Virus record (IMG/VR): IMGVR_UViG_3300036770_003386
Span: 20,139-84,138 of that record
Source of the DNA: a virus
Direction: 5' to 3' (one strand)
DNA length: 64,000 bases
Positions 3,373-31,708 of the stretch are shown here, one piece after another. The stretch's first letter is position 1. Every line of letters starts with the position of its first letter. Made by a program: the position numbers and the translations under genes. The notes below the pieces were generated by a model. It searched no databases. It saw nothing but the letters and a program-made list of their open reading frames with translations, and was not told the origin of the DNA.

Positions 3373-3427
3373 AGTTAATCCCTCAAAGTTTTTTAATAAT
3401 TTAAAAGTAGTTCCAACTAAATGTTCA

Positions 3428-3862
3428 TTAGAAGCAATACTTTTTAAGAACGTACTTTACTTTATTAGGTTTAGTTTCCATCCAATATGCTTCTCTTTCT
3501 ATATTGGCAACAGCGGAACCAAAATTTTTTACCGAAACCTTTAAATCTTTTTCTAAATTTTTAGAAAGATTCATTGTAGATGGTGAAATTCCAAATGCTT
3601 TTATTTCTCTCATATTTTGTTTACATGCCTGAGCAACATGAACAGATTCATGAAATAAAACCATATTGAAGTTGTAATTAGGATTTGGTTTTGAAAGAAT
3701 CTTATCAGTACAAAATACCATAGTTTTTGATCGATTATCATACCACCCAAATATGTCATGTTTCCGACATATTGGAGTATTTTCAACTACCCCAATTTTT
3801 TTGGAAATCATGTTATAAATTTCCATTCCTTGGGGAGAAAGATAAAGAAGAAAGTCCATCAA
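3428..3862 (-). CDS. zincin-like metallopeptidase domain protein
   Basis: LFHESVHVAQ (HExxH) plus downstream EREAY. Confidence 0.6.
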   Translation of the reverse strand: MMDFLLYLSPQGMEIYNMISKKIGVVENTPICRKHDIFGWYDNRSKTMVFCTDKILSKPNPNYNFNMVLFHESVHVAQACKQNMREIKAFGISPSTMNLSKNLEKDLKVSVKNFGSAVANIEREAYWMETKPNKVKYVLKKYCF

Positions 3863-6302: not shown

Positions 6303-7397
6303 TTATCTACCACTTGCTCTGCGTCTGCGAGCACGATAGTCGGTAGGTTGATCATCTTCTTCTCTTCTTCTAAGAGCACTACCTGGAGCAAACTCATTTC
6401 CTCCTACACGACTATCATTACTTCTATTTGTTGCCTTTTCAATTCCTCTTTTAGTAGCAACAGTTAATCTTCCAGCATCCATTTCAGACTCTCTCTTCTT
6501 TTTTTTATCAGATAATTTCTGAGAAAATCTTCTTCTTTCTATCTGATCAGGATTTTCATGTTCATGATAATCAGAATCTACGGTTGCACCTGGTCTTTTT
6601 TTAGATCTTTTTTCTCCCGTTGGAGATGTGACTGACATAATAGGATGTTTTCTTTCAACAATACTCTGTCTCCACTCTTCACTCATATTTGCCATAATCG
6701 CAAGTGCTTCCTCATTAGTATCAGCATAACCTTCAGCAACCAGATGCTCAAGAATAATATCAAAAATATCACCTCCAAACTCTTCATTTGCAAGTGATTT
6801 TAAACCATGCTTCTTAACATGTTCTCCAGCACGACGACCTGCTTCGTGAGTTACTGCTGCTGCCTTTGCAACTGTTTTACCAGTTTCTCTAGCAAGTTCC
6901 ATTGCTTTACGATGACGCTCCATACCAGCAAGAACTTGTCTTGCAATCGCATCACGAATTGGTCTTTTCTTTGGTTGTTGTGCCTTTGCTTCAGTATCAG
7001 CACCTTTTGATTCTGGTTCTTTTTTTTCAGTTTCAGATCTTTCTTGTGCTGCTGCCTTTGCTTTTTTCTTTGCCTCTTCTTTTGCGGCAATTTTTGCTTT
7101 TACTTCTTCATATGAAGGGCCACCTTTTCTTTTTTTAGCAGATCTCGCTTCAGTCAAAACTGTAAGATCTTCAGAAAGACCATGAACAAATTCTACAAAA
7201 TTATCAAGACCAACTTTTTCAATTAAAATATTAACACCATCTTCATTGAGACCATAAGTATAAAAATATTCTGTTGCAACTTCTACAATATCCTCATCAA
7301 AGATAGTGTTATTATATTCATCTGCTTGCTCTCTAAGATTTTCATCATAAACCGCTTGATAAAGCAGTTCAAAATCCTTTACCTGTTGTGTGTTCAT
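6303..7397 (-). CDS. putative capsid-packaged/internal protein (modular, K/E-rich)
   Basis: 364 aa; contains DIILEHLVAEGYADTNEEALAIMANMSEEWRQSIVE shared with 9846..10382; late-type promoter upstream. Confidence 0.6.
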   Translation of the reverse strand: MNTQQVKDFELLYQAVYDENLREQADEYNNTIFDEDIVEVATEYFYTYGLNEDGVNILIEKVGLDNFVEFVHGLSEDLTVLTEARSAKKRKGGPSYEEVKAKIAAKEEAKKKAKAAAQERSETEKKEPESKGADTEAKAQQPKKRPIRDAIARQVLAGMERHRKAMELARETGKTVAKAAAVTHEAGRRAGEHVKKHGLKSLANEEFGGDIFDIILEHLVAEGYADTNEEALAIMANMSEEWRQSIVERKHPIMSVTSPTGEKRSKKRPGATVDSDYHEHENPDQIERRRFSQKLSDKKKKRESEMDAGRLTVATKRGIEKATNRSNDSRVGGNEFAPGSALRRREEDDQPTDYRARRRRASGR

Positions 7398-7611: not shown

Positions 7612-9768
7612 TCAAGCAACGAGTTCTACAAACTCACTAAGAATACGCTTATTCATTTTTTTAGTCTTTAAACTCTTAACAAAAGCAGATTTGATTTGTG
7701 CTTTTGTTGCATCCTCAACAACGGAAAATTCAGATTCTTGAGAAAGAGCACTTGCAGAAAGACCAAAATAAGAATGATACCCAGACTTTTTGATGGTAAA
7801 TGCTTTCTCTTTTTTCCAAGAGTTCATCACCTTATCATACTCATTACCATAATACCCATAGTAACGGCGAATAAAGTGTCCAGCATCACGAGATTCAAGA
7901 ACACGAATACCAATAAAGTTGATGTCAGTAAATTTGTCCCGCAGATTGCGAAGAAGAACATCAGTAAAATTAGGATATTCAACGTCACATGAGTAAGTCA
8001 TTCCAGTCTTACGATCTCGCAAGAAAGAATTAGGCCCAATATGAGAAGTTCCAAGATACGGGTCATCTTCCCAACGACGCTGAACTTCACGATGATACTT
8101 AAGCATACATCCTTCACCATCAGTCAGCACAACACATTGAACTTTTTGCAATTTATTTTCTTTTTGAAACTTTGGTAGAATTTGATGAAGTGAAATAAGT
8201 GCTTCATTTAAAGGAGTGCCCGAAAGAGTTAATCCAACAGGAGCACTATAATAACAATGAGAATTATATCTAAAAGATTCTGCAAGGCGATAAATGTTTT
8301 TCATTTGATCCTCTAAGGTTTTACCATTCACTTTACTAGTAAGAAGGTTCATCAAAGAAAACCATTCGCCAACTTGAACTAATCCATCCTTCTTTTTATA
8401 AGAAAGTTGGCGCATATTTGCTTTACCATTTTCATCATACTTCACCAGAGGATAATCAGTAGTAAAAGCATAAACCTCAAAAGGAATAGAAACCTTTTTA
8501 CAGAACCAAACAAGATTAAAAAGTTGCTTGACAGTATCTGCCATCACATTTGACATAGATCCAGACCAATCAAGAATAAACACCAGTCCATGGTTCTTAC
8601 CATCAGAAAAAGTAGTTACTTTCTTAAACAGATCTTCATTATACTTGTAAGTATGAAGTTTAGAACAATCAAGAACACCAGTACGTGCGGTAGAGGCACG
8701 AGCATAAGAGTCTGCTGCTTTACGACATTCAAACTCTTTCACAAGATAATTAACTTCCTTTTGAGCAGAACGCTTAAATTCTGCAAATTGCTTATCAACT
8801 GCACCAAAAATATCTTGAAAATTCCATCCCTGAACCTCAAGGTAATTATCCCAATACTGTTTACAACTAGAATGAATTTCTTCGTTTGGAACAATTACTT
8901 GATCAAGATTAAGTTGAGGCAATTCAAGATAAACATTCTCACATGAGTCAGGATTAACAAGATCCTTCAGTGCCTCTTCCAGAGAGTCCATAGTTTTAAC
9001 CTCTGGATCCTCATCCTTTTCTCCACCCTCTTGAGTGTTTTTAGGTTGTTGCTGATCATTTTTCTCGGCAGTTCCACCATACGATCCAGGTTCGGCAGGT
9101 TGCTCCTGTTGATCATTCTCACCTTCCTGCTGATCAGTAAAATCAGAGGCAGGTTGCTGATTCGCACCACTATCTTGCGATTCCAGATTATCAATCTTAG
9201 TCTTGGTTTCTTCCTGCTGCTTTTGCTTACAATACTTATACAGTGCTTCTGCCGCAATCAGAACATCACCAAAAGTCTCACTATCAGCAATCAGATTAAT
9301 AATTTCAGTCTCTTCACCCCTCTCAACAGGAATATCTACATAGTTACCAATCTTAAACCACAGGTTAGCACGATCGGCAAGATTATAGGTTTCGATTTTG
9401 TCGTCTTTGATTTGAAAGAAATCTTGATCTGCAAGTTCTTTATAACCATTGAAGAAAGTCTTTGCCAGACCAGCATAACGACGTTTCATCAGTTTCTCAA
9501 TGCGAGCATCCTCAACCACATTTACAAACTGTGGAGGAATCTTATGCTCCTTCAACCAATCCTCATCAGGAGTATAAAGTGCGTGACCCACCTCGTGACC
9601 CACCAGAAGGTCATACACGGTGTTGCTTGCCTTTTCCCACATCGGCAGTGTCAAAACACGAGTGTGGACATTGAAACAAGCAGTCTCTACTTTCTTGTGC
9701 TCTACCACCAAATCCTCAGTGGCAAGCAGTTTAGCGAGTTGGGACTTAATTTCGTGGCGGACAGTCAT
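7612..9768 (-). CDS. CobT-like VWA protein with N-terminal HExxH metallopeptidase domain
   Basis: GHEVGHALYT; MIDAS DWSGSM, GTPLNEAL, LTDGE; usual partner of phage CobS. Confidence 0.8.
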   Translation of the reverse strand: MTVRHEIKSQLAKLLATEDLVVEHKKVETACFNVHTRVLTLPMWEKASNTVYDLLVGHEVGHALYTPDEDWLKEHKIPPQFVNVVEDARIEKLMKRRYAGLAKTFFNGYKELADQDFFQIKDDKIETYNLADRANLWFKIGNYVDIPVERGEETEIINLIADSETFGDVLIAAEALYKYCKQKQQEETKTKIDNLESQDSGANQQPASDFTDQQEGENDQQEQPAEPGSYGGTAEKNDQQQPKNTQEGGEKDEDPEVKTMDSLEEALKDLVNPDSCENVYLELPQLNLDQVIVPNEEIHSSCKQYWDNYLEVQGWNFQDIFGAVDKQFAEFKRSAQKEVNYLVKEFECRKAADSYARASTARTGVLDCSKLHTYKYNEDLFKKVTTFSDGKNHGLVFILDWSGSMSNVMADTVKQLFNLVWFCKKVSIPFEVYAFTTDYPLVKYDENGKANMRQLSYKKKDGLVQVGEWFSLMNLLTSKVNGKTLEDQMKNIYRLAESFRYNSHCYYSAPVGLTLSGTPLNEALISLHQILPKFQKENKLQKVQCVVLTDGEGCMLKYHREVQRRWEDDPYLGTSHIGPNSFLRDRKTGMTYSCDVEYPNFTDVLLRNLRDKFTDINFIGIRVLESRDAGHFIRRYYGYYGNEYDKVMNSWKKEKAFTIKKSGYHSYFGLSASALSQESEFSVVEDATKAQIKSAFVKSLKTKKMNKRILSEFVELVA

Positions 9769-9789
9769 AGGTTTGTTTCAGATGCCCTC

Positions 9790-9846
9790 ATTATACAAAA
9801 AAAGAGGGTGGTGAAACCCTCTAGTGTGCCAGTTTGAAAAGTGGTT
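9790..9846 (-). promoter_or_regulatory. box + stem-loop + -10 element (copy B)
   Basis: AACCACTTTTCAAACTGGCACA, AGAGGGT/ACCCTCT hairpin, T-run, TATAAT. Confidence 0.55.
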
Positions 9847-10382
9847 CAGTTTGGACGACGCTTTTGCATCATTTCTTTATTTTTCTTTTCACCAACGCCA
9901 AGAACTGCTTTTGTGACACCCTTTATAGCATGTCCTACGGGATCTGCAAGATTTTTTTGGAAGTTTTTAGCACCCTCTTCTGGAGATGTGCGTGGATTTG
10001 AAAGTAATCTTCCCGCAAGTTTTGATGCCCCAACACTCAGACCCATACCCTCAACAATACTTTGCTTCCACTCTTCACTCATTGCACTTATAATTTTTTC
10101 TGCAGATTTCTCATCAGATGCAAATCCTTCACCAAGAAGATAATCAATCAAATATTCTTCATTATGTCTATAAGAAACTCTTGGATTAACTTCGTGCTCA
10201 GAACCACGACCTCTACTACCAGTCATTCGATGTTGAGAAAAAGTATCTCCCACTCTATCATCTCCTCTTTCCTTTCTTGCCATCCTTCTTTTCTTTTCAA
10301 ATTCATGTCTTTTTTTAGCACTCATTTTTTTCTTAGGAATAGGTAGTCCCGTAATACCCTCTTCGGTTTCGTCTTTTGCCAT
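9846..10382 (-). CDS. putative capsid-packaged/internal protein
   Basis: 178 aa; YLIDYLLGEGFASDEKSAEKIISAMSEEWKQSIVE module; exact TATAAATA 21 nt upstream. Confidence 0.6.
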   Translation of the reverse strand: MAKDETEEGITGLPIPKKKMSAKKRHEFEKKRRMARKERGDDRVGDTFSQHRMTGSRGRGSEHEVNPRVSYRHNEEYLIDYLLGEGFASDEKSAEKIISAMSEEWKQSIVEGMGLSVGASKLAGRLLSNPRTSPEEGAKNFQKNLADPVGHAIKGVTKAVLGVGEKKNKEMMQKRRPN

Positions 10383-10402
10383 CTTACTAATACTTTTTTA
10401 GA

Positions 10403-10410
10403 TATTTATA
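10403..10410 (-). promoter_or_regulatory. T4-type late promoter TATAAATA
   Basis: Exact consensus directly after a terminator. Confidence 0.75.
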
Positions 10411-10540
10411 AAAAAGAAGCGCCCCTTGAGAGGCGCTTCTTGAGTGCTTGGCGTCGTGCCTTTGCTTGTCGGAGTGCTTGCGGTTTGAGTTTACGCTTCT
10501 GCTCCTTTTTAGAGTGATGTTGCCAGTTTGGAAGTTTCAT
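10406..10540 (-). CDS. 44-aa basic hypothetical protein (not in ORF track)
   Basis: MKLPNWQHHSKKEQKRKLKPQALRQAKARRQALKKRLSRGASFL; follows stem-loop promoter copy C. Confidence 0.55.
   Translation of the reverse strand: MKLPNWQHHSKKEQKRKLKPQALRQAKARRQALKKRLSRGASFL
10410..10441 (-). terminator. intrinsic terminator
   Basis: AGAAGCGCCTC-TCAA-GGGGCGCTTCT followed by TTTTT. Confidence 0.75.
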
Positions 10541-10563
10541 TTGTTCGTTGTTTATGATTCTAC

Positions 10564-10607
10564 TTTATATGAGAATCCTCCTTCGTGCGAAGGGGGTGTG
10601 CCAGTTT
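10564..10607 (-). promoter_or_regulatory. box + stem-loop + -10 element (copy C)
   Basis: AAACTGGCACA, CCTTC/GAAGG hairpin, then TATAAA (TAGAAT also present just downstream). Confidence 0.45.
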
Positions 10608-11193
10608 ATTTATTGCCCCATCTTTTGAGTGCTGCTTGCCTCATTTTTTCCTTTGCTTCAGGAGAATGAGATTTACCTTTCATGGGATTATTTTCACTCA
10701 TTTTTAAACTCATATTTTTTTTAAACTCTTCATTATGATTTTTTCCATACATTCCATTTTTTTCTCCAGAATTTTTTCTCCTTGGATCATTTTTCATTTT
10801 CTCAATGGTTTCGGGTGAATGTTTTTTACCCAGCATAGGCGGTGTTTTTTGTTTTAGTTTTTCTATTGTTTCTGGAGAATGTTTCCAACCAGAATTTATA
10901 GTCATCCCCCCACCACCAGGAGAAACATTTAATAAGTTAGAATTTTCACAAATATATTTTATTTCCAAATTTTCAATATAAGAAGCATCTTCACTTTGTT
11001 CCAAAATAGATAATTCAAAATTTTCAACTCCATATTTTCTAATAGAGTTATAAAATTTGGGACAATCATTTTTCTTCTTTTCGGTTTTATAAGCATATTG
11101 ATGTTTTTTCCAACGTTCTTCTGGTTTAAGAGAAGTTATGCCAATATATTTTTGTCCCGTAATTTTATTTTCAATACAATATAAACTATACAC
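10606..11193 (-). mobile_element. free-standing GIY-YIG homing endonuclease with NUMOD3 repeats (Seg-like)
   Basis: SLYCIENKITGQKYIGIT...ERWKKH...E; four NUMOD3-like units (KHSPETIEKLK, KHSPETIEKMK, NHNEEFKKNMS, SHSPEAKEKMR). Confidence 0.85.
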
Positions 11194-11220
11194 TGAACTA
11201 AATGAGAACTGAACTATGAT

Positions 11221-11228
11221 TATTTATA
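11221..11228 (-). promoter_or_regulatory. late promoter TATAAATA for the homing endonuclease
   Basis: Exact consensus between gp46 stop and endonuclease start. Confidence 0.7.
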
Positions 11229-11233
11229 AAATA

Positions 11234-12949
11234 TTACATTTCAGTCTTATAAGAAAAACCAGATTTTTTTTCAAACTTTAGTGTACGGTCAAATTTTTCT
11301 TGAAGATCTGATTTATGTGAAATTACAAATACATTAGTGTCTTTAACAACATACCTAATAATTTTTAAGAACTCATCGGCACCAAATCCATCAAGAGATC
11401 CATCAAAAACTTCATCAAATATAAGGATATTGCAATTTACAGAATTTTTTAGTTTTGCTATTTCACGCCAAGCAAAAATCAAAGCAAGATCTATACGTGC
11501 TTTTTCACCCTCACTGAAAGAACTATAAGAAAAGTCTTCGTGAATAGGTGATTTCACAGTTTCTGTAAATTCTTCATTCAAATGAAAATTAATATAAAAA
11601 TCCATCATTTGAAGATAACGGTTCACCTGCTGATTTATGAACGGAAGATACTTCTTAATGATCTTCGTTTTTACACCATCATCCTTAAGTAAGGAATAGG
11701 CAAAATCGTAATGTACGATTTGTTGTTTTTTATCTGAGAGATCTTCGATTGTCTTTTGGAGATTTTCCTTAAATTCTTCTAATTTCTCGTGTTCAGTATT
11801 TCGGTTTGCAAGATTCTTGGCAATTGTTTGAATTTCATGTTCAAGATCTCGGATTTGTCTCTGGTTGAGGGAAATCCTAGTATTATTTTGAGAAATGCCA
11901 TGCGTTAGTTTCGTAATCTCCTTGGATAGAGCAATGAATTGACGCTCTCTCTCCTGTTCGAACTTGATAGTGTTTTCGAGTTCTTCGTAACCTTCCTTAA
12001 GTTCCTTTGCCTTATTTTGAGCGTCTGTAATTCTATTTAACCGAAACTCTTCCTCGATTGTTTGTGTGCAAGTAGGGCATACCGTATTCCCTGTAAAAAA
12101 CTTATGCTCTTTGGTAATCACAGATACCTTCTGTGATATTTTACCCTTAAGATTGTTTAGTTTTACTAACTTATCACCAGCACCAACAACTTCTTCCTGT
12201 TCTTTCGTATAAGCAAAAATCTGCTCTTCGGTACGAGCATTTTCAGTCATATAAACACCAACTTCAACATCTAACTTGGTAATCTTTTCCTTATTGGCAT
12301 TTATATTGGCATTTCCTCTATTCTCAAGTTCTTCAATGAAACTTTCTTGCATACTAATTTTATCTTTGAGATTATCTTTTTTTAAATTTAAAGATTTAAT
12401 CTCTTCCTTTTGTTCTTTAATCTTTTCCTTCACAATACTGCCCATCGCAGAAAAAACGCGAATATCCAAAAGGTCTTCAATTACTTCACGACGATTCGAA
12501 GAAGTAAGTTGCATAAATGGTACAAAATTACTGCTACCCAATATCACAATTTGAGTAAAAGATTTATAATTTACTTTAAGAATATTTTCTTCTAAGATTT
12601 TTTGATTGGCACGATCATCTGACTCTTTATGAAGAAGAACTCCATTCACTTCAATGTCAAAAATATTTGGTTTAATTCCACGACGAACCAAATATTTTTT
12701 ATTATTGACTGAGAATTCAATTTCAACTATACAATCTTTTTCATTTACACTATTTACAAGTTGTGGTTTTGTGATTCCCCTAAAACTTTTATTGAAAAGA
12801 ACAAATGTAAGAGCATCCAACATAGTGGACTTTCCTGCTCCATTTGTACCAATTATAAGATTTGTATTACTTTTTTGAAAGTCAATTTCAGTAAATTGAT
12901 TACCAGATGAGAGAAAATTTTTATATTTGATCTTATGAAATAACAACAT
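11234..12949 (-). CDS. gp46: recombination endonuclease ATPase subunit (T4 gp46, Rad50/SbcC-like)
   Basis: GTNGAGKS, CPTC zinc hook, FSEGEK signature, LIFDEVFD. Confidence 0.95.
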   Translation of the reverse strand: MLLFHKIKYKNFLSSGNQFTEIDFQKSNTNLIIGTNGAGKSTMLDALTFVLFNKSFRGITKPQLVNSVNEKDCIVEIEFSVNNKKYLVRRGIKPNIFDIEVNGVLLHKESDDRANQKILEENILKVNYKSFTQIVILGSSNFVPFMQLTSSNRREVIEDLLDIRVFSAMGSIVKEKIKEQKEEIKSLNLKKDNLKDKISMQESFIEELENRGNANINANKEKITKLDVEVGVYMTENARTEEQIFAYTKEQEEVVGAGDKLVKLNNLKGKISQKVSVITKEHKFFTGNTVCPTCTQTIEEEFRLNRITDAQNKAKELKEGYEELENTIKFEQERERQFIALSKEITKLTHGISQNNTRISLNQRQIRDLEHEIQTIAKNLANRNTEHEKLEEFKENLQKTIEDLSDKKQQIVHYDFAYSLLKDDGVKTKIIKKYLPFINQQVNRYLQMMDFYINFHLNEEFTETVKSPIHEDFSYSSFSEGEKARIDLALIFAWREIAKLKNSVNCNILIFDEVFDGSLDGFGADEFLKIIRYVVKDTNVFVISHKSDLQEKFDRTLKFEKKSGFSYKTEM

Positions 12950-13202
12950 TTTTAGGAGGAATTACAATATCATTGGGAGTAATTATAGAATACTTGTAAT
13001 TATACATTTTACAAGTTTTGATGGCAAGTTCAGCATCAACTTCAACAACATCCATTTCAGCATCTTCTTGATCTTCTAACATTAAAGCATATCGAGTAGC
13101 ATCATCTTCTTCTTCAAAAAGAAATAAAACCTTATGTCCATATTGATCTTGGACAGCATATGCTCCATCATCTTTTCTATCTTTAAGAGTTAGAAGAAAC
13201 AT
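12933..13202 (-). CDS. conserved cyanophage hypothetical protein between gp47 and gp46
   Basis: 89 aa; LFLFEEEDDATRYALML; packing and synteny. Confidence 0.7.
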   Translation of the reverse strand: MFLLTLKDRKDDGAYAVQDQYGHKVLFLFEEEDDATRYALMLEDQEDAEMDVVEVDAELAIKTCKMYNYKYSIITPNDIVIPPKNVVIS

Positions 13203-13203
13203 T

Positions 13204-14238
13204 TTACTCTACTTGCGATGCTTGCTGATAAAGATCTTGAATGATCGTTTTAATAACATTTTTATCAAAATTAAATTCAGAATCATCTATATAGCGATTT
13301 AATACAGAAAGAGTATTTTCATCTTCGTCCACTTGAAAATCTCCACTTTCCTGAATTTCAAAGTTTTCAATAATTTTTAGTTCTTGGACACCAACATTAT
13401 AAAGTTTATCTATAAATTTTTCAAAATCTTTTGGTTTAGATTTTTTACGAACAATCACTTTGACAATTTTGTTTTGATACTCTGTTGTATCAAATAATTG
13501 ATGTGGAGTATCTTCATAATAAATGTTATAGAATAATTTATAAGGATTGTTGATTGGAGTATGTTCTAATGTTTCCGTATCAAAAATATGGAAACCACGA
13601 GTATCATTCACATCAGTCCAATACATTTCATATGGATTTCCTAAGTAAAAGATTGTCCCGTTAGTCGATCGAGTGTGATAGTGTCCCGAGTAGACCCTAT
13701 CGAACTTCTCAAATAATTCGCTCTCCAAACCATGTTCCATGATGAGTTGTCGATTAACTCTAAATCCTTGGCATTCAAGGTGCCCCATCGCACACTTGCA
13801 AGTTGTCTTTTCAATAAGTTTAAAAGTAAGTTCTTCATTTTCTTGATTAATCCAGGGTAAAAATAAAATATTCAATCCACCGATATTTACTTCAGTTGGT
13901 TTACTATAAGTTTTAATATTTGAATAAGTTTGAAGAAGAAGTTCTGGAGAGTTTACGTTATTAGTATTCTTATAATAAGTATCATGATTACCAATAATCA
14001 TATAGACTTTATACTTTTTAAGAGGATCAAATACAACTCTTTTTGCCCATTCAAGACTTTGATAGTCAATCGATTTCCGACTATCAAATGCATCTCCCAT
14101 ATGAATCACTGCCTCTACATTATTTTCTTCTAATGCAGGGAAAAACACATTATTGTAAAATAATTCAAAATAATCGTGAATATATTTTGAACCTTTACGA
14201 GCACCGTAGTGAGTATCAGTGATAATTGCTACCTTCAT
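13204..14238 (-). CDS. gp47: recombination endonuclease nuclease subunit (T4 gp47, Mre11/SbcD-like)
   Basis: ITDTHYG, GDAFD, GNHD, GHLE, SGHYH. Confidence 0.95.
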   Translation of the reverse strand: MKVAIITDTHYGARKGSKYIHDYFELFYNNVFFPALEENNVEAVIHMGDAFDSRKSIDYQSLEWAKRVVFDPLKKYKVYMIIGNHDTYYKNTNNVNSPELLLQTYSNIKTYSKPTEVNIGGLNILFLPWINQENEELTFKLIEKTTCKCAMGHLECQGFRVNRQLIMEHGLESELFEKFDRVYSGHYHTRSTNGTIFYLGNPYEMYWTDVNDTRGFHIFDTETLEHTPINNPYKLFYNIYYEDTPHQLFDTTEYQNKIVKVIVRKKSKPKDFEKFIDKLYNVGVQELKIIENFEIQESGDFQVDEDENTLSVLNRYIDDSEFNFDKNVIKTIIQDLYQQASQVE

Positions 14239-17760: not shown

Positions 17761-17997
17761 TTATAAAGGGGAAAACATTGTACTTCCAACAAGTCTTTTT
17801 ACAAATTTATCCGAATAAGATGAATTTGGTTTTGGAGTTTGTTTTTTTGGTTTTGATAAACTCATAGGAGGTGGACCAGCAGGTCTCATTGCAGATTGTA
17901 TATTTTTTTGCACTCCCGCATCACTAAGTTTAAATACGCTATTTGGACTTATTGGATCTCCTACTGCCTCATTAATAAATTGTTTGAATGTCTTCAT
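17761..17997 (-). CDS. small protein with T4 internal-protein-like capsid-targeting N-terminus
   Basis: MKTFKQFINE resembles T4 IP N-termini (MKTFKEF.., MKTYQEFIAE); TCTAAATA upstream. Confidence 0.6.
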   Translation of the reverse strand: MKTFKQFINEAVGDPISPNSVFKLSDAGVQKNIQSAMRPAGPPPMSLSKPKKQTPKPNSSYSDKFVKRLVGSTMFSPL

Positions 17998-18064: not shown

Positions 18065-19480
18065 TCACATGAGGTTGCTGATTGCAACTCTTCTGTAGTA
18101 AGCGTTCTTATTACGGGTAAGAGCACCTTGTCCAACATCTGCACCTTCAGCGAATGGGTTAGCAACAAGACCATATCTGGTCTTAAAGCCGATCTTAGGC
18201 TGGAAGGTGTTCTCACCAACGGCACGAACCATTTGGAGAGGAACATATGGGCAGTAGAAGAGTCCTGCGTCATAAGGATTAGCACCCTTATAACCAACTA
18301 CGTAGTACTGACCACCAGAAGCGCCAGGGTTTGAACCACCAGCATAAGGATCGATATAAACACGATACTTACCTTGGAGAACACCAGCGAAGGTATTACC
18401 AGTCTCATCAACCTGAAGGTTAGCGTTGAGTGCAGGGGTGTAGTCGAGAACGCCTGCCATGGTGAGTGCAGAAGCAACATCAGCAGAGCAAAGGATCATG
18501 TTACCCTTTCCTCTACGAGTTGTGTTTGCAATAGCATTTGCATCACGCTCGATTTGGAAGATCAGACCCTTGAACTTCTCAACAGACCAACGACCATTGG
18601 AGTCAACGTCGAGGTCAAAAGTACCTGCAGTAGCAACGTTGTGCTGAGCACCAGGTCTAGCAACGTTGTAGATGGTACGGATGATTTCGCGGTTGATTTC
18701 AGCAAGAATCTCAGTTGAGAGAATATTTGCTAATTCAGCCTCAGCATTCAGACCATGAATTGCCTTCAGGTCTTGTGCGAGTTCGAGTGAGTACTCAGCT
18801 TTCAGTGCGCGTGACTTAGCAGTTACGGTGACTTTCTCGATTGAGAATGCCATCTGGTTGAATGCACCAGAACCGTCTCCAAGATCTTCTGCACTGTCAG
18901 TACGCATACCCTGACCTACGTTGTAGGTAGTTGCGTCAGTTGGAGGAACAGTACCATCAAGGATTCCAGGATTGCTACCTGATTGTGCGGTAGTACCCAT
19001 ACCAACGCTAGCACCAGTGAATCCACTGGTAACGTTGAAGGATCCACTCTGACCAGAGAATGCAGAATTTGCTTCATTGTAGAACGCTTCAGTTCCACTC
19101 TGGTCATTATAGCGGGAACGCATTGCGAAGATGAGTCCAGTAGGACCGTTCATTGGTTGAACACCACACAGGTCATAAGCGACCAGGTTGGGCATTGCGC
19201 GACGGATCAGGGAGATCAGAACAGGGTCGAAACCTGCGGTAGGACCAGCACTGAATCCTTGTGCGCTACCACCAAAACCAGCAGCACCAGTAGTAGAAGC
19301 GGTGAAGTTGGTTGGTGATTCGTGAAGAAACTCGCGTGCTTCACGGAGTTCTTTTTCTTGGTTTTCGAGCAGGATAGCGGTTACAGCTCTACGATGTGAA
19401 TCTTTGATTTCATCGAGTCCTGAGTAGTCCAGGATAGGTGCCCACTTCTCCTGCAAATATTCTGCGTTGAACATTTGCAT
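18065..19480 (-). CDS. gp23: major capsid protein (T4 gp23)
   Basis: FDPVLISLIRRAMPNL, GVQPMNGPTGLIFAMRS, KSRALKAEYS, GLFYCPYVPL. Confidence 0.98.
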   Translation of the reverse strand: MQMFNAEYLQEKWAPILDYSGLDEIKDSHRRAVTAILLENQEKELREAREFLHESPTNFTASTTGAAGFGGSAQGFSAGPTAGFDPVLISLIRRAMPNLVAYDLCGVQPMNGPTGLIFAMRSRYNDQSGTEAFYNEANSAFSGQSGSFNVTSGFTGASVGMGTTAQSGSNPGILDGTVPPTDATTYNVGQGMRTDSAEDLGDGSGAFNQMAFSIEKVTVTAKSRALKAEYSLELAQDLKAIHGLNAEAELANILSTEILAEINREIIRTIYNVARPGAQHNVATAGTFDLDVDSNGRWSVEKFKGLIFQIERDANAIANTTRRGKGNMILCSADVASALTMAGVLDYTPALNANLQVDETGNTFAGVLQGKYRVYIDPYAGGSNPGASGGQYYVVGYKGANPYDAGLFYCPYVPLQMVRAVGENTFQPKIGFKTRYGLVANPFAEGADVGQGALTRNKNAYYRRVAISNLM

Positions 19481-19531: not shown

Positions 19532-20659
19532 TCACTTCTTGGCGACTCTACTGAGAGTCTGAAGATATGCTCCCATCATTGGTGATACAGATTCAGTTAA
19601 ATCTGAACCATAAGAAGTCTCTTCAGATAATGTCTCGGAGTCATCTCTTTGAGTACCAGCAGGTCTGGTTGGGAAATATGATTCCCTCAGAGTTACCAGT
19701 TTCTCACGATAGTTTTCTTCACTATCAAACTCAACATTTTCTGCAAGAGAAGCGAGTTTGTCCTTCTGAGAAAGTGCGAGACCCTCAGCGACATCTGCAA
19801 AGATTACATCAGCAACCGACTCTGCTAATCTTCTATTCAGAGCAATATTTCTTTCAATTTGCTCGTTGAGTTTTTCTTCCATTTCATCAAGTTTATCTAC
19901 CATACTCTCGATTACATCATATCTATCTTCAGGGATTGAAACATAATGATCTTCAAAAAGACCTTTCATTCCTTGGAGGAATGATTCTGTCATTTCGGTC
20001 TTAAGACCGTGCTCAACTGCGAGTGCATTCTCTTGAATCCACTCGTCAGCAACATACTCAAGATAAGCGTCTAAACGCTCAGTAAGTTCTTGTTTGATGA
20101 ACTCAACTTCTTCAACAAGAGCATTTTCATAAGTCTCTTGAAGTTGTTCTTTAATTTCAGAAACTTTTGAACGAATAGCAGTCTCAAAAATAGTACGTGC
20201 TTTTTCTTGAAACTCCTCAGAAAGCTCTTCACCAGCAAGAAGAGCATTGACATCTTCTTCGATATCAAATTCTTCTTCTACTACTTCTTCTTCGTCGTCA
20301 CCTTCTTCTGTGACTTCTTCTTCTGCTACTTCTTCTTCACCACCCTCTTCTGCAACTACCTCTTCCTCTTCTTCGGAAATAGTTTCAGATTCTTCATCAA
20401 CAGTTTCTTCTTTAACTGCTGCTGCTTTTGCATTAACAACATCCTTTACTTGAGCAAGAGTTGTTGCTGGATCTTTAATTTTTGCAGAATCGTCGTCTGG
20501 ACGATAGTTATCTGGAGTAGGGCCACCTAAATCTTCCCATGCACCAGTCTGCCCAGGTGTTGCGACACCGGAAGCATTTCCAGATTGCATTGGTTCTGCA
20601 GGTTTTGCGCCTTTGGTTACTACGTTTTCCATTTCTTGTAAATTTTTACCAACGGACAT
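19532..20659 (-). CDS. gp22: prohead core scaffold (T4 gp22)
   Basis: Very acidic; ELSEEFQEKARTIFETA, VDAYLEYVADEW-type motifs; synteny. Confidence 0.9.
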   Translation of the reverse strand: MSVGKNLQEMENVVTKGAKPAEPMQSGNASGVATPGQTGAWEDLGGPTPDNYRPDDDSAKIKDPATTLAQVKDVVNAKAAAVKEETVDEESETISEEEEEVVAEEGGEEEVAEEEVTEEGDDEEEVVEEEFDIEEDVNALLAGEELSEEFQEKARTIFETAIRSKVSEIKEQLQETYENALVEEVEFIKQELTERLDAYLEYVADEWIQENALAVEHGLKTEMTESFLQGMKGLFEDHYVSIPEDRYDVIESMVDKLDEMEEKLNEQIERNIALNRRLAESVADVIFADVAEGLALSQKDKLASLAENVEFDSEENYREKLVTLRESYFPTRPAGTQRDDSETLSEETSYGSDLTESVSPMMGAYLQTLSRVAKK

Positions 20660-20700: not shown

Positions 20701-21351
20701 TTATAAATTTGAAAGAAACTCTTGGAACAATAAAACCTTATTTTCTTGAAAAGTTCTTTCATCAACTAAAGTATTAATTCTACGCTTTGTTGATTCGGCA
20801 AGTCTTTCACGAAGAATTCCACCTTCCCAAATCCACTCTTTACCTTCCATAATTCCTTGAACAAAAGCATCAGGAGCAGAAGGATCGGCAACGATATCAG
20901 CAGCAGTTGCTAACATGAAATCTTCGCCAACAACTTTATGACCTTCATTAGTCATTTTAAGTGATCCTACTCCACGAGAAGAAACACCAAGGCAAACACC
21001 TTCACCAATTAATGATTGGGCAATTTTACCCATTGGTGTATCAAGAAGTTGTGCCTTACCTCTAAAATTATTTCCCTCACACTGAAGAGAAACAATTTTA
21101 TGAGAAACACGATCAAGATTTACAGTTGGACCATCTGGGTGACCAAGTTCACCTAAAGCACGTCCTTTATTGACAAAAGATTCTGTATATCTCTTTACTT
21201 CACGGGAGAGTGTTTCCATAGGATACATTCTTCCATTACGATTACAAATGTCTCCCTGAAGGAAGATTCCCTCAATAAACATTTTTTTAGAATTACCCTT
21301 TCCTTCGGTAATAAATTTAACTTCTGATACTTCTTCCGTGATTAATTTCAT
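20701..21351 (-). CDS. gp21: prohead protease (T4 gp21)
   Basis: NRNGRMYP, GELGHP, GVSSRGVGS, DIVADPSAPDA. Confidence 0.95.
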   Translation of the reverse strand: MKLITEEVSEVKFITEGKGNSKKMFIEGIFLQGDICNRNGRMYPMETLSREVKRYTESFVNKGRALGELGHPDGPTVNLDRVSHKIVSLQCEGNNFRGKAQLLDTPMGKIAQSLIGEGVCLGVSSRGVGSLKMTNEGHKVVGEDFMLATAADIVADPSAPDAFVQGIMEGKEWIWEGGILRERLAESTKRRINTLVDERTFQENKVLLFQEFLSNL

Positions 21352-26399: not shown

Positions 26400-28097
26400 C
26401 TACATGTAATCCCACATATATGATCTGTCTCCGTATTCATCTACATTCCAGACTTCCATCGCATGATTACTTTTATCTGTTCCTGCCCAAATCCATTTAT
26501 CCTCACTATTTTTATCAATGATTGGTTCAAAATCATCCAAACCATCAGAAATGAATCCAAATGGAGACATATCTTGCTCTATTTGATTTTTTTGCTCTTC
26601 ATAAATTCTTTTACGAACATCATTATTAGTCATTTCTTTGAAGTAAGGTTGTGCAACTAACCAGGAAAAAATGACAAGACACATTGCCAAGTCATCATTA
26701 CAACCCTCTTCTGCCTCAAATGAATTATGTCTCTGTGCAAATGTTGTAAGTTCTGATATAATATCATAGTCAATTGTTATCAGTTTATCATCTTCCATTA
26801 ATGTTTTGAGATTAGAACATCCCAGTTTTTTAACTGCAGATGTCATTCTTATTCCAAGTTGAGATTTTTTACCACTAAATCCAGTCCCAACAATTTGTCC
26901 AGCACGTCCTCTCATAGAACACATAAGAACGTTATCATATTCTAAGTCGAAATGTAAAATATTAGCAACTTGATCTCCAATATCATTAACTTCAACTAAT
27001 AACCAAGCATTATTATAACCTCTTGCCACTTCATTAATTATACTTGGAAATAACATTGGTTTTATTTCATTATTTCTATACTTTGCAACTACTTTATATG
27101 GAAAATTTGTAATATCGAAAACGACAAACGCAGAATAATCATTACTCATACCGCGAGCAACGTCAACAGTCATTAGATAATTATTATCCTTTTTTGGATG
27201 TTCATAAATGTCCAACCCAGCATTTCTCTTAATTGGATCCTCATAAACTAGATTTCTGAGTTTTGCTGGATTGATAAGGGTATTTGTAGAACCCAAGAAC
27301 TCGCAGTTAAATTCCACATTAAACTGCTGCTCAGAAGTGTTAGCAATCGTCTGCTCCTTCCAGGCAGCGTCTCTACCAGGTACTTCCGACCAATGGACAT
27401 CTGTAGGTACGTATTCATTCTTGCCCCGTTCAGCGTCATGCCACATGCGGTAGAAATGGTTCATACCGCGTGGAGTAGAAACGATAATTACTTTCGTACT
27501 CTGTCCAGAAGAAATAGTAGGATAAACAGAGGCAAAGAAGTCATCAGCAATGTGATTCGGGATGAAAGCGAACTCGTCAAGAAAGATGACATTATAGGAT
27601 CCACCTCGGACAGCAGATGAAGAAGTAGAGTTAGATGAAATTTTGGATCCATTTTCTAATTCTAAACTACCTTTATTCCATGATATAATTCCTTGTTGCA
27701 TCCATTTTGGTAGATTTTCATAAGCAAGTTGCAATCTACCAAGAAGATCTCTAGCAGTAGATGCTTTGTTTGCTAAGATTGCGATGTTAACATTATCGTT
27801 GAAAACTGCATAATGTAAAAGATATGAAACTACTGTAGTACTTTTCCCCGTCTGACGAGGCATCTTACAAATGTTAAAACGATTATTATGAAAATTTTCA
27901 ATCAGTTTTTCTTGAAATGGATACATTTCAAATGGAACAAGACCATGATCGAGAGAAACAATCTTGATATAGTTTCTGGCAAAATATACTGGATCTTCTT
28001 TACATTTTAAAAACTCAATAACTTGCTTTTCTGTAAACTCAATTGGGGTATTTGCTTTTTTGAGCAGAGGATTGCCCAAATAGATATTATCAGACAT
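26400..28097 (-). CDS. gp17: terminase large subunit (T4 gp17)
   Basis: YLGNPLLK, PRQTGKST, IFLDEFAF, VDVARG, DDLAM; no intein. Confidence 0.97.
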   Translation of the reverse strand: MSDNIYLGNPLLKKANTPIEFTEKQVIEFLKCKEDPVYFARNYIKIVSLDHGLVPFEMYPFQEKLIENFHNNRFNICKMPRQTGKSTTVVSYLLHYAVFNDNVNIAILANKASTARDLLGRLQLAYENLPKWMQQGIISWNKGSLELENGSKISSNSTSSSAVRGGSYNVIFLDEFAFIPNHIADDFFASVYPTISSGQSTKVIIVSTPRGMNHFYRMWHDAERGKNEYVPTDVHWSEVPGRDAAWKEQTIANTSEQQFNVEFNCEFLGSTNTLINPAKLRNLVYEDPIKRNAGLDIYEHPKKDNNYLMTVDVARGMSNDYSAFVVFDITNFPYKVVAKYRNNEIKPMLFPSIINEVARGYNNAWLLVEVNDIGDQVANILHFDLEYDNVLMCSMRGRAGQIVGTGFSGKKSQLGIRMTSAVKKLGCSNLKTLMEDDKLITIDYDIISELTTFAQRHNSFEAEEGCNDDLAMCLVIFSWLVAQPYFKEMTNNDVRKRIYEEQKNQIEQDMSPFGFISDGLDDFEPIIDKNSEDKWIWAGTDKSNHAMEVWNVDEYGDRSYMWDYM

Positions 28098-28108
28098 AAT
28101 ATATCTCC

Positions 28109-29419
28109 TTATGTTAAATCATAAAAACTAATAGAACCGATACAATCCGCAGAACCACTGACTGCTCTGACTGCTAGAGTTAAAATATCACTCACCTTTG
28201 CTTGAGTTCTTCCAAGTTGCAAGTCCCAGTTATAGTTACTCTCAATATTTAAAGGAGTATCTGATTTATTTGCAGAAGAAACAAAGTCATTCAATATAAA
28301 ACTTCCACCAGTCATTGTGGTTGCATCAGTATTGAATTGTGCATTTGGGGTATTTACTGCAGTCCAAGTTAAAGTTCCTACATTGGATAGAGTTGCATTT
28401 CTTATCAAAGCAACCTCTAAAACTGCAGTAGATGCAGAACTTCCCAAAAATGCAAAAGATTTTGGAAGGATGATTGAATCTTCTCTTCCTGGAGTGAGAC
28501 GAATACTTAATAAAGGAACAAAAGAAGTTCCCGAAACCGAAACTGTGGTTGTTCTTCTAGCAATATCTCTTTTTACTAATCTCTCATAACCACCATTTGA
28601 TTGAACAGATACACAAATCTGTTTCATAGTAGAAGCAGATGTTGTAATTCCTGTGTTTAGAATTTCATATCTAACTGGAAGTGTCGCAGTAGTCATATAA
28701 GTGGAATCAATACGATTTGCGTGATTAAATTGATGAACTGGAATAAATTTTCCATCAATTGCAAATCCTACTCTAACTGAACCTACACCCAACCATTCAT
28801 ATTCAGTAAAAAGAATTTGTGCTTTAGATATATCTAACTCAATACCACTTGGATTACTTGTGCTAAATCCAGTTCCATCAAGAGTATCCAAATTCCACTC
28901 CGATTGCGGAACTGTGATAGTGGTTCCTACTCCAGAAGTTGCAGTCCTCTTAATAATGTTGAGTTGGGAACCATTTAGTTCAAGCATTACACCATTCTCT
29001 GATGATGCATATCCTGCTCTTTGAACTAGATTTTCCTTTGCAGGATTGAATACAAATGTTTGAAGAACTTGTAAGGATTTTCCTGGTTGATATGAGAATA
29101 CTCTTTTGCTTTCACGAATGTAAGAACATCCTGCAGTAGTTCCAATACCTAATGTTGCGGTACTTTGTGCGGTGATGATTCCTACAGTAGAACCAGATCC
29201 AATGACGACATCACTGAAATCACCATCCTGCGAATATCTGTGAGACGAATCAAAAAGTGTAAAAGGTTGTGATACTTTTAATCTTCCAAAAAGATCCCCA
29301 CTAAATCCTTGCCCTAGGTCATCATAAATATTTCCGTACCTATCAGCACGCATATAAACTTCAAAAAGACTTCTTTCTTGATTTAGATAGTCTTGTGTAT
29401 TCTTATTCCATTGTGCCAT
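28109..29419 (-). CDS. hypothetical beta-rich (probably virion) protein
   Basis: 436 aa between gp16 and gp17; DLFGRLKVSQPFTLFDS. Confidence 0.7.
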   Translation of the reverse strand: MAQWNKNTQDYLNQERSLFEVYMRADRYGNIYDDLGQGFSGDLFGRLKVSQPFTLFDSSHRYSQDGDFSDVVIGSGSTVGIITAQSTATLGIGTTAGCSYIRESKRVFSYQPGKSLQVLQTFVFNPAKENLVQRAGYASSENGVMLELNGSQLNIIKRTATSGVGTTITVPQSEWNLDTLDGTGFSTSNPSGIELDISKAQILFTEYEWLGVGSVRVGFAIDGKFIPVHQFNHANRIDSTYMTTATLPVRYEILNTGITTSASTMKQICVSVQSNGGYERLVKRDIARRTTTVSVSGTSFVPLLSIRLTPGREDSIILPKSFAFLGSSASTAVLEVALIRNATLSNVGTLTWTAVNTPNAQFNTDATTMTGGSFILNDFVSSANKSDTPLNIESNYNWDLQLGRTQAKVSDILTLAVRAVSGSADCIGSISFYDLT

Positions 29420-29421
29420 TA

Positions 29422-29730
29422 TTAATCAGTCCAAGTTAATCTTTCTGGTTGATATCTTTGTGCGCTTTTAATCCTAGAAGTATTTACCTCACCAGGATAA
29501 ATGTTATGAACAATTGCACCAGGATATTCTCCTTGAATTTGCTCTGCAAGTTCATTTCTGGTGAGCATTTTTCCTTCTACTTCTAAACGATACATTTTTC
29601 CTTCCCAGACAACATCAGCAAAAAAAGACTCGCTTGCTTGCTCTGGTTGCGAAGACCCTATATTTAAAGTCCCATTGAAATCTCCATTAATGGTGATGCT
29701 TTCTGATAAAAACTGTTGAAAACTTTTCAT
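29422..29730 (-). CDS. protein with capsid-targeting-like N-terminus
   Basis: ATG at 29730 (TAATG overlap with upstream stop) gives MKSFQQFLSE. Confidence 0.6.
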   Translation of the reverse strand: MKSFQQFLSESITINGDFNGTLNIGSSQPEQASESFFADVVWEGKMYRLEVEGKMLTRNELAEQIQGEYPGAIVHNIYPGEVNTSRIKSAQRYQPERLTWTD

Positions 29731-31244
29731 TAGTTGCACCTCCAACGGCGTAATGCTTTGTTAATTCTTGAATCTGGATCTCTTGCAGTTTTTGCAGAAG
29801 TCAGTTTTGATTTCATCCCAGACATACGACGACAAAATGAAGCACGACGCTTTGCTCTCTTACCTTTTGGTTTCTTCTCAGTTACTGCAGTTTGAAGTTT
29901 TGAACCTGGATTTTCACGACGATAAGCATTTACTGCTGCTTGACTTAAACCATCGGTTTTATCTTTACGATTTACTTTTTGCCAATCTTCGGATAATCCA
30001 AAATCTTCTCTCCAATTAGAAAATTCTTCTTTTTTTACACAGTTTGGATATCTTTTTCCAAACATTGTCTTCATACCTTTTTTCTTATATCCAGGCCAAC
30101 ACTTTTCATCAAGTTGATTACCTTCTGGTTGATAATGTGCTTGCTGAAGTTTGGGGAGTTTTGGTTCTTTATCACCATGTTTTTTGGGAGATTTACCTTC
30201 AGGATAAGAAATAACCGCTCCTCCAAGACCAGAACCAGATTTTATTTTTACAGATCCACCAACTTGTTGCTCATCAATTCTTTGCAATTTTCCTGCTTGT
30301 TTAAGAGCAATTATTCTTTGAGTTGGAGTCATTTTTCCCTTTCTTTTCATAATTTTTTGTACTGCAATATCGAAAGGTTTTTTATCGGACATAGAATCTG
30401 TGTCAGCAACTTGCTCACTCATTTCACCACTGTCAACATAATCTGCTGCAGAATCAAGATAATCTGCCGCTTTAGTAATTTTTGATTGAACCCATGCTTC
30501 AATATTTCCTTCACCTTTCATTTTTTTACGAAGTCTTCTTGCTGCAGAAATGATGGTAGAAATTTCAGATCTTGCCATTGAATACTCATGATCTTTTGAT
30601 TCTGGCATAGTTCCTGGATGTGGAGTGTTAGGTGTATAATCTTTCAGTTTAATTGGCATTGAAAACATGTCCCAATATTTTGAACCATACTTACATTCAT
30701 TTCTAGTTTCTTCTTTTTTACATTTTGGACAATACCTAATCATTTCTACAGATTCTCCCCAATTTGAAGCACCAACTTTACGACACTTAACTAATGCTCC
30801 AGATGCATAAGCACTTGGCCAAACACTATATCTCGACTTAACCTTGTGGTAACAAGCATCTTTTGTTCCGCTACCTTTTCCAGGTTTGTCTTTTCTTGCT
30901 TCGGTAAGTTCCATTGATTCTTTAATTCCTGGTTCTGCCTTAATATAATTAGGATCTTTTTTTCCTTTAGCGAAAGTTTTAACCATTGTTGGTTTTGCTG
31001 CTCCAGACTTTAACTGTTGATTTTTATCTTTTTGTCTTTTACGGCGAACAGAAGATCTAATTAAAGATTCACCCTTTTTACCCTTTTTCTTTAATGATTT
31101 AAGTCTTCCACTACTAAAACACTTTGGTGTCTTAGTTTCACCAGGTTCATTTGCACATGGGGAACCGTCTGCCTGAACCCATCCAGGCTTTCCATCCTTT
31201 GATTTAGAACCTTTAAACCAATGATGAAGAGTTCCCTCGTTCAT
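29730..31244 (-). CDS. modular basic polyprotein-like protein, putative head cargo
   Basis: 504 aa of short K/R-rich modules separated by (L/I/M)xE junctions; TCTAAATA upstream. Confidence 0.6.
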   Translation of the reverse strand: MNEGTLHHWFKGSKSKDGKPGWVQADGSPCANEPGETKTPKCFSSGRLKSLKKKGKKGESLIRSSVRRKRQKDKNQQLKSGAAKPTMVKTFAKGKKDPNYIKAEPGIKESMELTEARKDKPGKGSGTKDACYHKVKSRYSVWPSAYASGALVKCRKVGASNWGESVEMIRYCPKCKKEETRNECKYGSKYWDMFSMPIKLKDYTPNTPHPGTMPESKDHEYSMARSEISTIISAARRLRKKMKGEGNIEAWVQSKITKAADYLDSAADYVDSGEMSEQVADTDSMSDKKPFDIAVQKIMKRKGKMTPTQRIIALKQAGKLQRIDEQQVGGSVKIKSGSGLGGAVISYPEGKSPKKHGDKEPKLPKLQQAHYQPEGNQLDEKCWPGYKKKGMKTMFGKRYPNCVKKEEFSNWREDFGLSEDWQKVNRKDKTDGLSQAAVNAYRRENPGSKLQTAVTEKKPKGKRAKRRASFCRRMSGMKSKLTSAKTARDPDSRINKALRRWRCN

Positions 31245-31258
31245 TCTATATTAAAATA

Positions 31259-31708
31259 TTATTCTTTATTATTTAGAAAACCTTGCTTTAACAATTTTGA
31301 TAGTTCAGAAGTAGACCCTACAAATACTGCATTGTTTGTAACATTATTTGTTGTTTTTATTGATTCTTCTTCAATATCCTTTAATTTCTTTTGCAAGTCT
31401 ATCAGTTTATCTGTAACATCACCAACACTTTTAATTAATTGTCCAGCAACTTCATATGCTCTTGGTTGATCACTTTCTGAAGCAAGTTCCATAATTCCAT
31501 CAATTGCTTCTTGCCCCTTTTCAATTAAAGAATAAAGATTTGCTCTTGTATATTCATAATCTCTTTTTATATCAACAGAAGATGACGAAAATTCTTTCAC
31601 TTCATTGTTAACTACAATTGCATCAGAATTATTACATACTTGAATTTCGCTAGATGTATTTAATACATCATCTAATTTATCAAAATTTTTAGGTTTCATA
31701 ATAATCAA
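31259..31708 (-). CDS. gp16: terminase small subunit (T4 gp16)
   Basis: DYEYTRANLYSLIEKG, PRAYEVAGQLIK, NNAVFVGSTSELSKLLK. Confidence 0.92.
   Translation of the reverse strand: MIIMKPKNFDKLDDVLNTSSEIQVCNNSDAIVVNNEVKEFSSSSVDIKRDYEYTRANLYSLIEKGQEAIDGIMELASESDQPRAYEVAGQLIKSVGDVTDKLIDLQKKLKDIEEESIKTTNNVTNNAVFVGSTSELSKLLKQGFLNNKE
31270..31277 (-). promoter_or_regulatory. late promoter variant TCTAAATA
   Basis: Inside gp16 3' end, 25 nt upstream of ATG at 31244. Confidence 0.45.

Follow-up and report, generated by a model that had tools for sequence, protein, structure and literature searches.

The window analysed here, 64,000 nucleotides of the viral record IMGVR_UViG_3300036770_003386, belongs to a 121,851-bp viral contig of a T4-like cyanophage, whose nearest isolate, Synechococcus phage S-SRM01, shares 81% nucleotide identity with part of the region only. 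The minus strand of the window carries, in this order, gp13, gp14, gp15, gp16, an open reading frame (ORF) of 504 amino acids (aa), a 102-aa gene, a 436-aa gene, gp17, gp18, gp19, gp20, gp21, gp22, and gp23 (Table 1). The 504-aa ORF, which is the subject of this report, ends in a stop codon at 29730-32 and is separated from gp17 by the two genes named after it; the interval between gp16 and gp17 is known to be hypervariable in cyanomyoviruses (PMC3037559). A preliminary description of the window had taken this ORF for a polyprotein of small basic modules that is cut by the prohead protease gp21, and sequence comparisons lead us to consider it, on balance, probable that the gene encodes a precursor of small, mostly basic peptides internal to the phage head. 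The stop codon of the ORF overlaps the ATG of the 102-aa gene, the product of which begins with a T4-type capsid targeting sequence (CTS), in the arrangement TAATG (29728-29732, minus strand); the TTG start at 29745 that the ORF finder gave for the 102-aa gene is probably not used.

The 504-aa protein (57 kDa) is strongly basic, with 81 lysine and 32 arginine residues (113 in total) against 57 acidic residues, for a net charge of +56, and contains 11 cysteines, two per module and three in a CPKC module; the preliminary description of the ORF as a series of lysine- and arginine-rich mini-modules with paired cysteines is thus borne out. The paired and conserved cysteines suggest a disulfide or metal staple. 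A whole-genome search found no paralogues of the full protein. A Pfam search that admitted E-values up to 1 yielded a single match, in which the C-terminal module (module E) matched DUF6321 with 53.8 bits (gathering threshold 28.5); a family search module by module, as had been proposed, thus placed module E and left the other modules without a Pfam match. PHROG 727 covers the whole protein (E-value 5.7e-89) and several other PHROGs match single pieces; the related families (Pfam DUF6321 and DUF5661; PHROG 727, 3477, 12753, and 38880) carry no functional description, and many relatives have an N-terminal extension containing DUF5661, which the window protein lacks. None of the 14 PHROG matches and the one Pfam match represents an internal-protein family such as T4 IPI, IPII, IPIII, or Alt.

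An AlphaFold model of the whole protein, built with 48 homologues and used only to show disorder and not for fold searches, had a mean predicted local distance difference test score (pLDDT) of 49, with short folds of moderate confidence at approximately residues 170-200, 290-320, 381-404, and 420-504 and low confidence between them. As modelled, the protein is a beads-on-a-string chain in which disordered linkers connect about eight mini-modules that each fold on their own. The DUF6321 module is predicted to form a helical bundle (pLDDT 80); a fold search with this module against the PDB and the AlphaFold DB clusters matched unnamed family members only, and an ESM Atlas search with residues 116-215 found nothing beyond the protein's own family.

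Table 1. Features of the 504-aa ORF and of neighbouring genes in the window, with predicted products as expected from cleavage at the module borders.
Feature	Residues of 504-aa protein	Window position	Strand	Remarks
gp16		31259-31708	minus	directly precedes 504-aa ORF
504-aa multi-module ORF, proposed polyprotein	1-504	29730-31244	minus	Pfam DUF6321 at residues 427-501; PHROG 727, 3477, and single-module PHROGs
Module A (WF..SKSK..GW, Cys30/Cys42) with basic helical tail A2	4-109	30918-31235	minus	ends IKE109; predicted product 11.7 kDa, net charge +19
Spacer SMELTE	110-115	30900-30917	minus	between tandem sites IKE|S and LTE|A
Module B (DACY..WPSAYASG..CRK) and module D (RYCPKC..C, zinc-ribbon-like)	116-215	30600-30899	minus	ends MPE215; no canonical site between B and D
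Module H (DHEYSMARSE.., two long helices)	216-277	30414-30599	minus	ends MSE277
Variable centre, M1 and M2	278-325 (M1), 326-380 (M2)	30105-30413	minus	M1 ends IDE325, M2 ends LDE380; other modules replace the centre in most relatives
Module C (CWPGY..PNCV beta-hairpin, Cys382/Cys402) with pre-E element ..SNWREDFGLSE419	381-419	29988-30104	minus	
Module E (DUF6321), start DWQKVN, Cys471/Cys503	420-504	29733-29987	minus	predicted product 9.8 kDa, net charge +19
102-aa gene with T4-type CTS MKSFQQFLSE|S		29422-29730	minus	directly downstream of proposed polyprotein
436-aa virion structural protein, phrog_1645		28109-29419	minus	
gp17		26400-28097	minus	
gp21 prohead protease, Peptidase_S77, presumed processing enzyme		20701-21351	minus	PF03420 (E-value 3e-36); phrog_207 (E-value 1.8e-80)
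gp22 scaffold with long Glu-rich tract		19532-20659	minus	
gp23 major capsid protein, propeptide site FLHE|S		18065-19480	minus	
78-aa gene, CTS MKTFKQFINE|A		17761-17997	minus	directly after gp23

In T4, gp21 cuts after the glutamate of L/I-x-E (PMC9026906), in agreement with the rule on which the preliminary description relied, and the key evidence for processing of the 504-aa protein comes from the distribution of hydrophobic-x-Glu motifs at its module borders. Eight of the nine [LIVM]xE sites in the protein lie at module borders, in linkers of low confidence; VTE456 alone is internal. The junction tripeptides quoted in the preliminary description all occur where it placed them, and six of its eight junctions (LTE, MPE, MSE, IDE, LDE, and LSE) stand, as opposed to WGE|S, which has no canonical P3 residue, and MNE|G, which is the N-terminus itself with Met1 at P3; a conserved IKE|S at residues 107-109 had been missed, and its estimate of about eight peptides becomes, on recounting, approximately seven predicted peptides plus a spacer of six residues. 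Tandem sites also occur on a 93-kb contig (L009). A count of the motif in this single sequence was rejected as stand-alone evidence, as [LI]xE occurs five times versus 2.4 expected (P = 0.08, not significant); a widened set, [LIMW]xE, occurs 10 times versus 4.0 expected (P = 0.005), but this set was chosen post hoc.

Comparison across the family used the distinct 16-residue stretches found upstream of each module's anchor motif, taken from representatives less than 50% identical overall. [LIVMF]-x-E was present in 77% of 90 such contexts upstream of module A, 94% of 115 upstream of module B, 98% of 118 upstream of module C, 58% of 26 upstream of module D, 87% of 110 upstream of module E, and 62% of 29 upstream of module H, as compared to 21-44% in shuffled versions of the same stretches and 0-39% for [LIVMF]-x-D. 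The junction glutamate lies at peaked offsets from the module anchor, and the motif is present regardless of which module stands upstream. P3 is occupied by V, I, L, M, or F, ten or more kinds of residue occur at P2, and G, A, K, and E predominate at P1'; upstream of the DWQ-type E module, P1 is glutamate in all 58 distinct contexts, which together contain 30 different tripeptides. A residue from the set LIVMF stands at P3 of 29.8% of linker glutamates (hydrophobic frequency 19.9%) and of only 7.9% of glutamates inside modules (frequency 13.4%), and aspartate shows no such bias. As read from these sequences, selection maintains P3 and P1 but leaves P2 free, and modules avoid the motif internally; this junction pattern is as would be expected for a site read under the T4 gp21 rule. 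A global test also found L, I, M, and V enriched at P3 before glutamate (z = 6 to 10), but because the reverse motif E-x-[LIV] was likewise enriched, we relied on the position-specific tests instead. With regard to the internal VTE|K (residues 454-456, window 29877-29885), this tripeptide lies inside DUF6321 and is invariant in the DWQ-type subfamily but absent from the AAW-type subfamily, which includes the Syn9 and S-SCSM1 proteins; it may be an extra site that splits module E into halves of 37 and 48 residues, or may be shielded by the fold.

The modules that these junctions separate are extensively shuffled. An exhaustive search (E-value at most 0.001) showed that the family comprises at least 7,579 clusters when grouped at 50% identity. 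Conservation among the 120 closest relatives covers residues 1-276 and 407-504, with the centre swapped for other sequence. When eleven segments of the window protein were mapped onto 270 homologues by iterated profile searches, 108 different module orders were found; neither a fixed order nor unconserved junctions, which had been named beforehand as outcomes contradicting the polyprotein reading, were observed. A and A2 remain joined, D and H mostly do, and E comes last wherever it is paired with another core module, with at most one exception per pairing; the movable modules are B, C, H, and D-H, with C before B in 30 proteins, H before A in 26, and C before D in 32. Close homologues are present in S-SRM01 (63% identity), S-SCSM1, and Syn9. 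For example, S-SCSM1 gp029 has module C ahead of D, Syn9 gp114 consists of A, B, C, and E only, and the long multi-module protein of the 93-kb contig lacks E. Modules also occur outside such chains: E stands alone in podovirus P-SCSP1m, as an 84-aa gene that follows the capsid gene, and in pelagiphage HTVC023P, as a 105-aa gene, and accounts for the C-terminal part of a gene of 167 aa in MED4-213, in which four small genes fill the gp16-gp17 interval. Module B stands alone as an unannotated small ORF in the roseophage CRP-901 (Roseobacter phage), where two small ORFs in different frames at approximately 2990-3500 correspond to stand-alone modules B and A. The core domain of the 102-aa protein reappears within multi-module proteins of other phages, for example as one of the modules inside S-SCSM1 gp029, and has a gene of its own in MED4-213.

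Two further late-looking genes of the window (6303-7397 and 9846-10382, both on the minus strand), which the preliminary description had listed as sharing a module, do have a common module, ending ..MSEEW[RK]QSIVE, and the former gene matches phrog_3477 and hence belongs to the same mosaic family as the proposed polyprotein. In both genes a tryptophan at -7, a hydrophobic residue at -3, and a glutamate at -1 form an element that resembles the ..SNWREELSE found before module E of many homologues and that may be a second pre-cleavage or targeting element. As a separate observation on the nearest isolate, the RefSeq copy and the gene sizes in the window suggest that 'tail sheath protein' and 'terminase large subunit' have been interchanged as gene labels in GenBank record MW015081.1 (S-SRM01, 9584-13488).

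A second line of evidence links these modules to the T4 head pathway, more strongly than had been claimed. The CTS of T4 is MKTYQEFIAE (PMC8442874), in which residues 8 and 10 control processing and residues 4 and 7 control targeting (PMC9026906); the junction motif hence corresponds to the processing part of the CTS. A search with residues 405-504 as query found 4,916 short proteins, and among the best 120 short DUF6321 proteins 45 start with a T4-type CTS (e.g., MKTLKDFISE, MKSFQEFIQE, and MINLKEFLNE), which in all 45 is followed directly by DWQ.VN, i.e., by the very residue that comes after ..GLSE in the window protein. Modules with a T4-type CTS are known as proteins of 94-137 aa, and two-module proteins of the form CTS-C-E, with a second hydrophobic-x-Glu before E, also exist. 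On the 93-kb contig, a CTS-DUF6321 gene has a cytidylyltransferase gene on one side and, directly after it, a gene of phrog_1645, the family of the 436-aa protein. The contig that contains the window carries exactly four ORFs with a CTS-type N-terminus, encoding the 78-aa and 102-aa proteins, a 428-aa cytidylyltransferase, and a 173-aa GNAT acetyltransferase; the two that lie in the window had been named as CTS genes in the preliminary description, and both do carry a T4-type CTS. The 78-aa gene has no Pfam or PHROG match, and its product is probably an internal head protein. In addition, the gp23 propeptide site, which exists in the window as had been noted, is kept as hydrophobic-x-Glu across phages (FLHE|S in the window, FLSE|A in P-SSM2, MINE|A in S-RSM4, ILSE|T in P-RSM1, and FLTE|A in T2).

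The two enzymes with a CTS-type N-terminus are encoded outside the window, on the minus strand of the contig. The cytidylyltransferase (contig positions 9430-10716) is NMNAT-like, belongs to the cyanophage core group T4-GC190, and starts with MKLFSTFITE|A, and the CTS is kept in its orthologues from S-SSM4, P-SSM4 (T4-GC190), and S-RIM8. Mass spectrometry of virions has detected T4-GC190 in S-SM1 and NMNAT-like proteins in both S-SCSM1 and S-CBWM1; as this CTS-bearing family is found in virions, the CTS-type N-terminus marks proteins that have been placed experimentally in cyanophage virions. The GNAT acetyltransferase (PF13508, E-value 4.6e-8; contig positions 93302-93823) starts with MKTFSQFVQE|A and is a candidate for a packaged and injected enzyme, in principle by analogy with T4 Alt.

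The association of module borders with CTS ends also allows for a reading in which the protein is never cut, i.e., a multi-domain virion or DNA-associated protein in which the hydrophobic-x-Glu motifs are relics of the CTS ends of internal-protein genes that became fused. A history of fusion is indeed visible, as a complete CTS-like sequence occurs inside some of the long homologues, ahead of module E, and proteins that start exactly at a module read M-x-E; the absence of a CTS from the window protein would also fit. Relics should decay, however, whereas P3 and P1 persist among contexts of less than 50% identity in which P2 and the linker vary freely, and the depletion of the motif within modules likewise speaks against relics. 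The specific possibility that M, V, L, or I at P3 are former start codons was ruled out by the P3 codons of the window gene, which are CTT, CTT, TTA, ATT, and GTA. We thus regard an uncleaved fusion protein as unlikely.

Alternatively, hydrophobic-x-Glu could be a short linear motif that serves some purpose other than cleavage, for example binding of the scaffold or the portal, or could cap the N-terminus of each mini-fold, consistent with the fact that it adjoins the conserved start of the modules (e.g., E-G-S-L-H-x-W-F and E-D-W-Q) and that the tryptophan-type element described above recurs before module E and in two other genes of the window. This alternative appears very unlikely to us, as the motif is common to six unrelated modules, as stand-alone copies of modules in three non-T4-like phages lack it, and as the corresponding positions of the T4 CTS, 8 and 10, serve processing and not targeting, for which positions 4 and 7 are responsible.

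An indication of where the family is located comes from S-SCSM1 gp029, which carries the label 'virion protein' in its record; the paper on which this record is based found 45 virion proteins by mass spectrometry. This label, the existence of CTS-tagged paralogues, and the position of the gene among head-cargo genes, to one of which it is translationally coupled, all argue against a late basic protein that acts in the infected cell outside the virion, for example by compacting or marking DNA before packaging. While the strongly basic composition, the cysteine-containing modules that resemble DNA-binding domains, and the location in the hypervariable gp16-gp17 region (PMC3037559) would suit such a protein, we judge this explanation highly improbable.

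A number of observations nevertheless weigh against a cleaved head precursor. The window protein has neither an N-terminal CTS (it starts MNEGTLHH) nor a full internal one, and the same holds for 269 of the 270 long homologues; without a CTS, the window protein would have to enter the prohead in another way. The B-D junction, at which WGE|S stands, has no canonical site in the window protein, and close homologues likewise lack the motif there. The motif fixes only two positions, and homologous junctions cannot be counted as independent samples, even if the variation at P2, at P3, and among neighbouring modules implies many separate substitutions. Three stand-alone copies in non-T4-like phages, one of them an Autographiviridae podovirus, have no hydrophobic-x-Glu, and the occurrence of such single-gene modules in podoviruses and pelagiphages indicates that cleavage is not intrinsic to module function. 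The S-SCSM1 proteome was obtained by shotgun analysis of tryptic peptides and hence provides neither product sizes nor neo-termini. Finally, the family was not found among the virion proteins of Syn9, S-PM2, and S-SM1 in the part of the Sullivan 2010 supplement available to us, in which small lysine- and arginine-rich peptides would easily be missed.

Comparison with known systems places the proposed precursor closest to the head proteins of T4. The T4 internal proteins IPI, IPII, IPIII, and Alt are likewise small basic head cargo encoded at a hypervariable locus, and their CTS of about 10 residues, which ends in hydrophobic-x-Glu and is removed by gp21, is nearly identical to the CTS of the single-module relatives (MK[TS]F.[QE]F[ILV].E). 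The window protein, however, shows no sequence, PHROG, or Pfam relation to the T4 internal proteins and has no CTS, and while these proteins are cut once, the window protein has many cargo units per chain with a site before each. The T4 core proteins gp22, gp67, and gp68 resemble it in that a single precursor has several L/I-x-E sites, at which it is cleaved within the prohead (PMC9026906). The core fragments are scaffold remnants that mostly leave the head, however, whereas the products predicted here are folded, mostly basic, cysteine-paired, and shuffled modules under their own selection. Those fragments of T4 core proteins that are retained in the head are acidic. In the giant phages phiKZ, 201phi2-1, and SPN3US, prohead proteases cut head and ejection proteins after glutamate, at A/S-x-E, as detected by semi-tryptic peptides (PMC5694885), and hence head cargo is also matured there by cuts after a glutamate in a three-residue motif. 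These systems differ in P3 preference, involve large proteins from which propeptides are trimmed rather than concatenated mini-modules, and show no homology to the family described here. A more distant parallel is provided by adenovirus, in which the viral protease cuts the core precursors pVII and pX (mu) inside the capsid to yield basic DNA-associated peptides; this is a functional analogy only, as virus, protease, and sequences are unrelated. By sequence, the proposed precursor belongs neither to the T4 internal proteins nor to the T4 core proteins, and the concatenation of cargo units that each have their own site and the scale of module exchange set it apart from both.

The mechanism that we propose starts with a precursor made late and translationally coupled to the CTS-bearing 102-aa protein through the TAATG overlap. 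The precursor would enter the prohead core either by binding, through its net charge of +56, to the glutamate-rich gp22, or by riding with the coupled CTS protein; gp22 contains a tract of approximately 55 residues that are nearly all Glu, Asp, or Val, and basic cargo without a CTS could plausibly dock electrostatically on this acidic tract. Inside the prohead, gp21 would cut after E109/E115, E215, E277, E325, E380, and E419, and perhaps also after E3 and E456; our assessment, from the junction sequences, is that cleavage of several of these junctions by gp21 is reasonably probable. The predicted products (residues 4-109, 116-215, 216-277, 278-325, 326-380, 381-419, and 420-504) would have masses of about 11.7, 11.4, 6.9, 5.5, 5.8, 4.7, and 9.8 kDa, respectively, with N-termini at G4 (or M1), A116, S216, Q278, Q326, K381, and D420, and five of the seven would be clearly basic. 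These peptides would remain associated with the DNA inside the capsid, as counter-ions or DNA-binding cargo, and may accompany it into the host; neutralisation of DNA charge or DNA binding, with co-injection, is our best guess as to their role.

A broader scheme, which we put forward tentatively and regard as possible but doubtful, would extend this mechanism to a combinatorial head cargo in T4-like cyanophages and probably in other marine T4-like phages. Under this scheme, dozens of interchangeable, cysteine-paired mini-proteins would be delivered to the head either singly, by means of a CTS, or in bulk, as polyproteins cut by gp21; the NMNAT-like cytidylyltransferase and the GNAT acetyltransferase would take the same CTS route, the peptides would be co-injected with the DNA, both to act as its counter-ions and to counter host defences or metabolism as early effectors, and modules would be exchanged with podoviruses and pelagiphages. 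A full-text literature search found no description of such a cyanophage cargo system, which thus seems to be undescribed in these ocean viruses.

T4-like cyanophages are among the most abundant viruses of the sea, and little has been learned about what their heads contain besides DNA and shell. As exact neo-termini are predicted for the 504-aa protein, existing virion proteomics data could confirm or refute its processing if searched again. If the proposed processing is true, a very large family without assigned function (at least 7,579 clusters, including the DUF6321 and DUF5661 proteins) would gain a role as head cargo released by a protease, and the presence of NMNAT-like enzymes in cyanophage virions, as detected by mass spectrometry, would be explained simply by their CTS. 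The T4 pathway of capsid targeting and gp21 processing would then be both conserved and much expanded in cyanophages, and the hypervariable gp16-gp17 region would represent a locus of cargo diversification comparable to the internal-protein locus of T4.

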